From a virus (Duplodnaviria > Heunggongvirae > Uroviricota > Caudoviricetes): a stretch of 36,382 nt of DNA. The DNA lies in IMG/VR virus record IMGVR_UViG_2880361019_000006. One strand, given 5' to 3'. Shown in pieces: positions 28,501 through 31,500 of this stretch. Position numbers: made by a program. Numbering within the stretch: position 1 is the stretch's first letter; every line of letters begins with the position of its first letter.

Positions 28501-31500
28501 CCCGAACACGGCACTGGTCGGCGTGCAGGTGGACTCAGAGCAGTTCGGCAGCCAGCAGGTGAGCCGTAATTATCATCTGCGTGGGCGCATTCTGCAGGTG
28601 CCGTCGAACTATAACCCGCAGACGCGGCAATACAGCGGTATCTGGGACGGAACGTTCAGGCCAGCGTACAGCGACAACATGGCCTGGTGTCTGTGGGATA
28701 TGCTGACCCACCCGCGCTACGGCATGGGGAAACGTCTTGGTGCAGCTGATGTAGACAAATGGGCGTTGTATGCCATCGGTCGGTACTGCGACCAGTCGGT
28801 ACCGGATGGCTCTGGCGGCACGGAGCCGCGCATCACCTGTAATGCGTACCTGGCCACACAGCGCCGGGCGTGGGATGTGCTCAGTGATTTCTGCTCGGCG
28901 ATGCGCTGTATGCCGGTATGGAACGGGCAGACGCTGACGTTCGTGCAGGACCGGCCGTCGGATAAGGTGTGGACCTATAACCGCAGTAATGTGGTGATGC
29001 CGGATGATGGTGCGCCGTTCCGCTACAGTTTCAGCGCCCTGAAGGACCGCCATAATGCCGTTGAGGTGAACTGGATTGACCCGGATAACGGCTGGGAAAC
29101 GGCAACAGAGCTTGTGGAGGACACGCAGGCCATTGCCCGTTACGGTCGTAATGTCACGAAGATGGATGCCTTTGGCTGTACCAGCCGGGGGCAGGCACAC
29201 CGAGCCGGGCTGTGGCTGATTAAAACGGAGCTGCTGGAAACGCAGACCGTGGACTTCAGCGTGGGTGCTGAAGGGCTTCGCCATGTACCGGGCGATGTCA
29301 TTGAAATCTGCGATGATGACTATGCCGGTATCAGCACCGGCGGGCGCGTGCTGGCGGTGAACAGCCAGACCCGGACGCTGACGCTCGACCGTGAAATCAC
29401 GCTGCCATCCTCCGGTATCACGCTGATAAGCCTGGTTGACGGAAGTGGCAATCCGGTCAGCGTGGAGGTCCAGTCCGTCACCGACGGCGTGAAGGTAAAA
29501 GTGAGCCGGGTTCCTGACGGCGTTGCCGGATACAGCGTGTGGGGGCTGAAGCTGCCGACGCTGCGCCAGCGCCTGTTCCGCTGCGTGAGTATCCGTGAGA
29601 ACGACGACGGCACGTACGCTGTCACTGCCGTGCAGCATGTGCCTGAAAAAGAGGCCATCGTGGATAACGGTGCGCACTTTGACGGCGACCAGAGCGGCAC
29701 GGTGAATGGTGTCACGCCGCCAGCAGTGCAGCACCTGACTGCCGAAGTCACCGCAGACAGCGGGGAGTATCAGGTACTGGCCCGCTGGGACACGCCGAAG
29801 GTGGTGAAGGGCGTGAGTTTCCTGCTTCGCCTGACCGTGGCAGCAGACGACGGCAGTGAGCGGCTGGTCAGCACGGCCCGGACGACGGAAACCACATACC
29901 GCTTCAGGCAACTGGCGCCGGGGAACTACAGGCTGACAGTCCGGGCAGTAAATGCCTGGGGACAGCAGGGCGATCCGGCGTCGGTATCGTTCCGGATTGC
30001 CGCACCGGCAGCACCGTCGCGGATTGAGCTGACGCCGGGCTATTTTCAGATAACCGCCACGCCGCATCTTGCCGTTTATGACCCGACGGTACAGTTTGAG
30101 TTCTGGTTCTCGGAAAAGCGGATTGCCGATATCCGGCAGGTTGAAACCAGCGCGCGCTATCTTGGCACGGGGATGTACTGGATAGCCGCCAGTATCAATA
30201 TCAAACCGGGCCATGATTATTACTTTTATATCCGTAGTGTGAACACCGTTGGCAAATCGGCATTCGTGGAGGCTGTCGGTCAGGCGAGCGATGATGCGGA
30301 AGGTTACCTGGATTTTTTCAAAGGCCAGATAACCGAATCTCATCTCGGCAAGGAGCTGCTGGAAAAAGTCGAGCTGACGGAGGATAACGCCAGCAAACTG
30401 GAGGAGTTTTCGAAAGAGTGGCAGGACACTAACGATAAGTGGAATGCCATGTGGGGCGTCAAAATTGAGCAGACCAAAGACGGCAAACATTATGTCGCGG
30501 GTATTGGCCTCAGTATGGAGGACACGGAGGAAGGCAAGCTGAGCCAGTTTCTTGTCGCCGCTAACCGTATTGCGTTTATTGATCCGTCTAATGGCAACAC
30601 ACGACCAATGTTTGTTGGTCAGGGCGATCAGATATTCATGAACGACGTGTTCCTGAAGCGTCTGACGGCCCCGACCATCACCAGCGGCGGCAATCCTCCG
30701 GCATTTTCCCTGACACCGGACGGGCGGCTGACGGCGAAAAACGCTGATATCAGCGGTAACGTGAATGCGAACTCCGGGACGCTCAACAATGTCACGATAA
30801 GTGAGAACTGTACGATTAAGGGCATGCTGGAGGCGACCCAGGTCAGAGGGGATTTCGTTAAAGCTGTATCAAAAGCCTTCCCGAAAAAAGTCGGTACGTG
30901 GGGTAACACGGAAACGCCAGACGGGACGGTTACAGTCACCATCAGCGATGATCATAACTTTGACCGTCAGATTATTATTCCGCCCATTATTTTTAACGGT
31001 ATAGCGTATACCGATCCGGGAAGTGGTAATAATCCGGGAGGTACAAGGTACACGGGTTATGGATTTGAAGTTCGCAAAAACGGCGTATTAATCGCATCCA
31101 GAGAAACTAAAGGGGCCATTCCCGGTAGTTACAATGCGGTTATTGATATGCCGGGTGGCAGGGGAAGCGTCACTCTGGAGTTTAAGATTTTCCAGAAAGG
31201 CAATCAGCGGGCAGGTAATATCACCGACTGTACGGTGATTGTGACCAAAAAAGCGGCTTCCGGCATCAGTATTCGTTGAAATTATTATAACCCATATAAG
31301 GGCACCAGAAATGGTGCCTTTTTTATTGCAGAAAAGCGAGAGGTAATTATGCGTAAAGTTTGTGCAGCCATTTTGTCCGCAGCCATCTATCTGGCCGTAT
31401 CCGGTGCGCCTGCATGGGCGTCTGAACAACAGTCCACGCTGAGTGCGGGCTATCTTCATGCCCCGACGAACGTTCCCGGCAGCGATGATCTGAACGGGAT

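Follow-up and report, generated by a model that had tools for sequence, protein, structure and literature searches.

The 3' end of gene J in a decayed Escherichia albertii lambdoid prophage is a 434-type allele of the gpJ receptor-binding domain

Gene J, encoding the tail tip attachment or central tail fibre protein, was analyzed in IMG/VR virus record IMGVR_UViG_2880361019_000006, a 36,382-nucleotide stretch of DNA from a virus of the class Caudoviricetes (the window; positions are counted from its first letter). The host element is a decayed, defective Escherichia albertii prophage. According to an earlier note made from the DNA alone, J tracks lambda gpJ up to a replaced C-terminal receptor-binding domain, which would imply a receptor different from that of lambda. 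As judged from its sequence, the 3' end of J is the classical h434 allele, well annotated, very common and already known. The gene, the parts distinguished in it and the insertions or deletions (indels) relative to lambda are the following:

27866-31279, plus strand: gene J, tail tip attachment/central tail fibre protein, intact open reading frame (ORF) of 1137 amino acids
27866-30815, plus strand: conserved lambda-like part of J (hub domains, FNIII domains, helical shaft, beta-prism fibre), amino acid identity 95% to lambda J and 96% to 434 J
30816-30840, plus strand: junction at which the likeness to lambda is lost, forming the left boundary of the exchanged specificity module; DNA identity to 434 remains 0.91-0.97
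30833-31276, plus strand: receptor-binding domain, J residues 990-1137, 434-type allele of the Ig-like gpJ C-terminal domain
30890-30895, plus strand: indel 1 relative to lambda, +2 amino acids (J 1009-1010; lambda 1008/1009), adjoining hotspot lambda 1012 (PMC6646904)
31025-31042, plus strand: indel 2, +6 amino acids, GNNPGG (J 1054-1059; lambda 1051/1052), hotspot 1048-1049 (PMC6646904)
31124-31126, plus strand: indel 3, +1 amino acid (J 1087; lambda 1078/1079), hotspot 1077-1078 (PMC6646904)
31190-31222, plus strand: indel region 4, net -4 amino acids (J 1109-1119; lambda 1099-1114), hotspot 1107 (PMC6646904)

J is enclosed in a plus strand ORF spanning 27821-31279, the translation of which includes both peptides quoted in the earlier note. 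The start codon (ATG at 27866, MGKGSSKG...) was set by homology, and 31279 is the final base of the stop codon. The protein belongs to the NCBIfam family NF049904 lambda_TipJ, scoring 2273.9 bits (cut-off 1950) over residues 1-1137, and contains the Pfam domains FNIII-A_GpJ, Phage-tail_3, Ig_J, Ig_J_second, Phage_Tail_Tip and Ig_GpJ_C. According to the ORF map and the Pfam matches, the gene has the position expected from the order of lambda tail genes (...H, M, L, K, I, J, lom, stf), from which the window deviates by an extra Arc/Ant insertion between L and K. The exact J protein, named 'host specificity protein J [Escherichia albertii]', is present on 24 contigs, and its 90% cluster has 8,237 members.

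Similarity to lambda J (NC_001416, 15505-18903) was monitored by global protein alignment in blocks of 50 residues. Identity is 0.90-1.00 in each block through residue 950, 0.76 at residues 951-1000, and 0.44, 0.28 and 0.35 in the final three blocks. The break described in the earlier note is a real one, the first 987 residues being 95.3% identical to lambda, the last 150 only 37.3% (Fisher exact p = 4e-62). In contrast, identity to 434 J is 96% in both parts of the protein. At the DNA level, identity to lambda is 0.91-0.99 per 150-nucleotide block to about nucleotide 2700 of J, 0.84-0.92 to window position 30815, 0.60 at 30816-30840, and 0.36 or lower from 30866, the divergence running through the end of J and on into lom. 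The domain had been placed at 30830-31279; the left boundary lies within about 15 nucleotides of the true junction, and the right one coincides with the last base of the stop codon.

J residues ~900-985 (window 30560-30815) show 86-90% amino acid identity, and are more divergent from both lambda and 434 than the protein is elsewhere; as an example, the comparison sequence reads PANGNETPMFVAQGN. The alignments suggest that a third parental lineage may have contributed this segment of the beta-prism fibre.

The domain matches that of phage 434 J (OL657226.1) at 142 of 148 residues (96%), with 0 gaps and 94.4% identity in DNA, and is hence assigned to the 434 type. The six changes, from window to 434, are T1049D, N1090S, G1097S, R1099G, I1108V and Q1110H. 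The alignment that the earlier note had proposed as a check gave no high identity to the lambda C-terminus: the domain is 37-40% identical to lambda J 990-1132, with 17 gap columns, and is not of the LamB type. Neither is it of the A8 type, identity to the A8 gpJ domain (PDB 9wca) being 43%, with 12 gap columns. The lambda and A8 domains are 45% identical, and lambda, A8 and 434-type domains appear from these figures to form three roughly equidistant allele families.

By alignment and by model, the C-terminus of J is a divergent allele of the lambda gpJ receptor-binding domain, not a foreign or unrelated one. Pfam PF12421 Ig_GpJ_C is matched at J 1001-1136 (profile positions 1-134 of 135) with 86.8 bits, the gathering cut-off being 26.2. 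The 149-residue tail alone hits the lambda gpJ domain in the PDB (8xcj/8xck) over its full length with E = 8e-19; its best PDB sequence match, again full length, is A8 gpJ 713 (9wca/9wcb; E = 6e-25). A homologue search with the 158-amino acid tail gave mostly short, partial or chimeric entries, and a cleaned subset provided the 12-sequence alignment for an AlphaFold2 model of J 972-1137 as a monomer. The model is all-beta, with a mean predicted local distance difference test score (pLDDT) of 75.7 and a predicted template modelling score (pTM) of 0.70. Its top structure matches in the PDB are 8xcj, 8xck, 9wca and 9wcb (TM-score 0.70-0.72, probability 1.00), and structure prediction, the second check proposed, thus points to the Ig-like beta-sandwich fold found in the solved lambda and A8 gpJ structures. 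Residues kept relative to lambda include GD.VKA, FP, GT.TVT..DDH.FDRQI, NG, DMP.G.G.V.L.F and V.V.KK...GIS. The alleged lack of resemblance to the lambda domain holds in the sense that this is not the lambda LamB-binding allele, and does not hold at the family level, the two being about 40% identical over the full length. The word 'replaced' likewise fits a divergent allele and overstates the case for a domain homologous to lambda over its whole length.

Differences from the lambda domain concentrate around the four indels (lambda 1008/9, 1051/2, 1078/9 and 1099-1114). Maddamsetti et al. 2018 found J indel hotspots at lambda 1012, 1048-49, 1077-78 and 1107 among 1,207 natural homologues, and described the 'specificity region' (lambda 960-1132) as an independently exchanged evolutionary module (PMC6646904). 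The window has the same pattern, a conserved body, an exchanged C-terminal module and indels at hotspots, with no substantive difference; mEp460 and cdtI, both included in the sequence set of that study, carry the J allele of the window. Indel 2 sits within a low-confidence loop of the model (block pLDDT about 54), at the start of which residue change T1049D is found; I1108V and Q1110H are located at indel region 4. We infer that the four indel sites correspond to lambda loops L1-L4 of PMC11101478, since the text of that paper gives no residue numbers for these loops. Clustering of variable positions at the four indel loops was tested for: among 14 distinct 434-type sequences, 24 of the 148 positions vary, 15 of them within loosely defined loop windows covering 68 positions (hypergeometric p = 0.06).

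The J protein of phage 434 (OL657226.1, UMO75286.1) has the same length as that of the window, 1137 amino acids, and is 96% identical to it both as a whole and in the domain, with no indels. The downstream order lom, stf, tfa, followed by type III secretion system (T3SS) effector genes, is also shared. The two differ in the six domain substitutions, in J 900-990 (86-90% identity) and in lom, frameshifted in the window; moreover 434 is a viable phage, the window element a decayed prophage. Lambda gpJ (NP_040600; PDB 8iyk, 8xcj, 8xck) has in common with the window protein the lambda_TipJ family, the order of domains, 95% identity to residue ~987 and the Ig-like fold, but differs in having a domain only 37-40% identical, four indels at the published hotspots, and LamB as receptor. 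The A8 gpJ chimera (PDB 9wca, 9wcb; Brodel et al. 2024, PMC11338833) binds OmpC and has been solved in complex with it; fold (TM-score 0.72) and modular logic, a natural gpJ C-terminus fused to lambda J, are shared, yet its domain belongs to the third allele family. Lambda-like J proteins in which a divergent C-terminal domain confers OmpC use are also known in phi330, a siphophage of enterohaemorrhagic E. coli, and in Gifsy-1 (PMC12502783, PMC12312913). Reported identities are 35-40% between the phi330 domain and those of 434 and lambda, and 18% between the C-terminal regions of the Gifsy-1 and lambda proteins; phi330 and Gifsy-1 are placed beside the window by description only.

The 434-type allele is widespread. 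It was found at 90-95% DNA identity in 74 phage records, including 434, 434B, lambda h434 imm21, mEp460, cdtI, 2851, many Stx1a-, Stx2a- and Stx2c-converting phages, and ECOR prophages. Of 5,426 complete E. coli genomes, 2,111 harbour it, at 2,857 places in all, while lambda's own allele was detected in 98, all at 99% identity or more; the five such genomes listed are laboratory K-12, B and DE3 strains. The 434 type is therefore present in about 20 times as many complete E. coli genomes as the lambda allele, and calling the domain 'replaced' is a lambda-centred description, because the 434 type is the commoner one. In a scan of contigs the allele family was found only in Escherichia, Shigella and Citrobacter, plus one "Collinsella" metagenome-assembled genome (a 1.35-kb contig). 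Neither matching phages nor gpJ are mentioned in the BASEL completion paper (PMC11990801), and a 2026 receptor-prediction preprint covers Drexlerviridae GpJ, not the allele of the window.

J tails 39-40% identical to the query were also found in about 17 assemblies of unrelated taxa (loci L012-L028), among them Neobacillus, Leeuwenhoekiella, Pseudomonas, Shewanella, Bradyrhizobium and Paenibacillus. Several of these contigs are ~48.5 kb long, others tiny, and coverage is ~1-10x where titles give it; these tails are most likely lambda DNA contaminating the assemblies.

Lambda given the 434 tail fibre gene in place of J binds OmpC, the receptor of 434 (PMC3509688, PMC11101478). In a 2025 paper OmpC is again the target of 434 J, AlphaFold3 models show loops of the 434 domain contacting OmpC with docking of the trimer, and the lambda, 434 and phi330 domains, 35-40% identical, are traced to a common ancestor (PMC12502783). 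Docking of the trimer on a trimeric porin is known from solved structures for lambda and A8 (PMC11101478; title of PDB 9wcb). Because the domain is near-identical to that of 434, and 434 is reported to use OmpC, a receptor other than LamB, most likely OmpC, is indicated for the J allele of the window, and on this analogy OmpC is its probable receptor. The different outer-membrane receptor announced in the earlier note is thus borne out to the extent that the allele is not the LamB one and is 96% identical to that of OmpC-using 434; the difference is again one measured from lambda, and the receptor is assigned by likeness to 434.

A natural limit to the region involved is set by lambda h434 imm21 (OM418627.1, locus L034). 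Its J follows lambda at all informative sites to nucleotide ~2114, and 434 from ~2133, the switch falling at about codon 705-711; lom, stf, tfa and the effector genes of the hybrid are likewise those of 434, and for both reasons the 'h434' allele in its historical sense extends beyond the receptor-binding domain. Comparison of the three sequences would narrow the OmpC determinant to the last ~427 J codons plus the side-fibre genes, and within the J of the hybrid only the last ~150 codons differ substantially between lambda and 434.

The h434 allele at the 3' end of J, redirecting binding from LamB to OmpC, is the likely explanation of the locus as a whole. J would work as a trimer, the last ~148 residues of each chain forming an Ig-like beta-sandwich whose distal loops would insert into a trimeric outer-membrane porin, and binding to the receptor would open the tail tip. 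The beta-strand scaffold would have been kept and the four indel-bearing loop regions, the putative contact surface, changed, so that LamB binding would be redirected to another porin, most likely OmpC. Homologous recombination may have brought the allele into J, the crossover lying near window 30816-30840 and the non-lambda block running on into lom. J would now probably be a silent copy, which other lambdoid phages could still acquire through recombination.

The element in which J resides is in poor condition. The window segment 24866-34279 is identical to CP034212.1 4408822-4418235, while the best complete E. coli genome shows only 95% identity over window 27000-34500. Directly after the integrase gene (1-1074, minus strand) come IS21 istA/istB (2335-4637) and IS1 (4879-5382), then a DUF1737/SASA nanS-p-like esterase gene (6157-8028) and the lysis genes. 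Immunity, replication and Q genes, as well as tRNA genes, were looked for and none was found in the window; the loss of the entire early region, comprising immunity, replication and Q, is the reason for regarding the prophage as defective. An in-frame amber codon interrupts the tape-measure gene H (21222-23798), leaving two ORFs, of 138 and 692 codons; the residue encoded at this position in lambda H is presumably tryptophan. The tail module is unlikely to function, the domain probably does not appear on virions in the strain of the window, and the prophage carrying J seems capable neither of tail production nor of induction. Given the established mosaicism of lambdoid phages, the J gene may still serve others of this group as a donor in recombination. 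The amber codon and the features found downstream of J are the following:

21636-21638, plus strand: in-frame TAG in tape-measure gene H (...GALAYA*YQGY...; DNA gcc tag tat)
31298-31327, plus strand: terminator-like hairpin and T-run directly 3' of J, found by consensus scan; identical in 434, where it is annotated as a terminator
31349-31947, plus strand: lom (Ail/Lom outer-membrane protein), 434-type, frameshifted, lying with the J 3' end in a single non-lambda block
32006-33235, plus strand: stf, side tail fibre gene and second determinant of adsorption in the module (Pfam phage_tail_N, Collagen, Phage_fiber_C), syntenic with 434 stf
33237-33506, plus strand: tail fibre assembly/fibre C-terminal domain protein, 89 amino acids (Pfam Phage_fiber_C)

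In lom two ORFs (133 and 90 amino acids) cover Pfam Ail_Lom positions 1-119 and 118-199. The DNA is 92% identical to 434 lom, relative to which 1 bp of a G-run is missing at about 31701; the 133-amino acid call is also present in CP034212.1, and the frameshift reflects either a pseudogene or a homopolymer sequencing error. The 89-amino acid fibre protein corresponds to a called gene at 8372-8641 of locus L003, which maps exactly from window 24866 onward.

Several points weigh against assigning OmpC to the J of the window. Six residues of the allele differ from 434, some adjoining the indel loops. The hybrid alone does not map OmpC use to J, because 434 lom, stf and tfa are carried as well. Likeness to A8 says nothing on the receptor, because A8 (43%) is no closer to the window domain than lambda (40%). 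The protein may never enter a virion in the strain of the window, given the H amber codon and the missing early region. Variants of gpJ such as A8 and 1A2, studied as chimeras, discriminate between OmpC alleles and accept different ones (PMC11338833), and one to four substitutions can add new porins, as shown by phage 21 and lambda gaining the use of OmpC or OmpF (PMC11336670, PMC6646904). These data leave some room for a 434-like domain which in its E. albertii variant would recognise a receptor other than K-12-type OmpC, be it an E. albertii OmpC allele or a porin such as OmpF, owing to the six substitutions or to a role of the side fibre. Four of the six substitutions lie in or beside the variable loop regions, and the h434 hybrid also has 434 stf; but identity to 434 is 96% with no indels, alleles 97-99% identical in DNA are present in E. 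coli genomes, and OmpC use has been ascribed to the 434 J fibre itself (PMC3509688, PMC11101478), which makes such a variant receptor improbable. It is similarly doubtful that the six substitutions retune the domain to E. albertii OmpC or to a second porin, as a species-specific sub-specificity kept as a recombination donor.

The literal wording of the earlier note, an unrelated domain of different fold and lacking lambda homology grafted onto J, is hardly credible. It would find a basis in the lack of resemblance to lambda asserted in the note, and in DNA similarity to lambda at background level (about 0.36-0.5) after 30866; it is refuted by the PDB sequence match over the full length of the lambda domain (40%), by the above-threshold score of Pfam Ig_GpJ_C, and by a model TM-score of 0.70-0.71 to lambda gpJ, and runs counter to the shared ancestry of the lambda, 434 and phi330 domains (PMC12502783). 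Whether J is a relic in a dead prophage, devoid of present function and of a specificity relevant to the strain, is an evenly balanced matter. The early region is lost, the interval from int to the late genes holds IS21 and IS1, H has an amber codon and lom a frameshift, all of which speaks for a relic. Against it, J is an intact ORF of 1137 codons, identical on 24 contigs, and suppression could overcome the H stop codon and the homopolymer frameshift, either of which might also be an artefact of sequencing. Infecting lambdoid phages are, moreover, known to rescue tail genes from defective prophages by recombination. A relic would bear on the current use of J, not on the identity of the domain, and is compatible with the h434 allele being the explanation of the locus.

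If the 434-type assignment of the receptor is right, a particle built with the J of the window is expected to need OmpC rather than LamB. This bears on host-range prediction in E. coli and E. albertii for prophages of the lambdoid and Stx types, and on the choice of gpJ modules for engineered delivery particles. The LamB-binding tip of lambda is a rare allele in nature, the 434 type the common one; otherwise the result is of little import beyond correct annotation.

Other genes were noted along the window. An Arc-like repressor gene (24839-25216, minus strand) and a P22 Ant-like antirepressor gene (25668-26444) lie between L and K; the block (24839-26444) is absent at the corresponding position in lambda and 434. 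A homologue of PerC-family transcriptional activators (9887-10201; Pfam PerC, E = 5e-44) is found between the lysis and terminase genes. T3SS effector cargo is located 3' of the tail fibre genes, at 33716-34363 and 35057-36382 (minus strand). One of the two genes encodes an NleG family protein; the second is a 441-amino acid ORF with no match in Pfam or NCBIfam, 96% identical to annotated E. coli NleA except for a 15-residue deletion in the repeat region.

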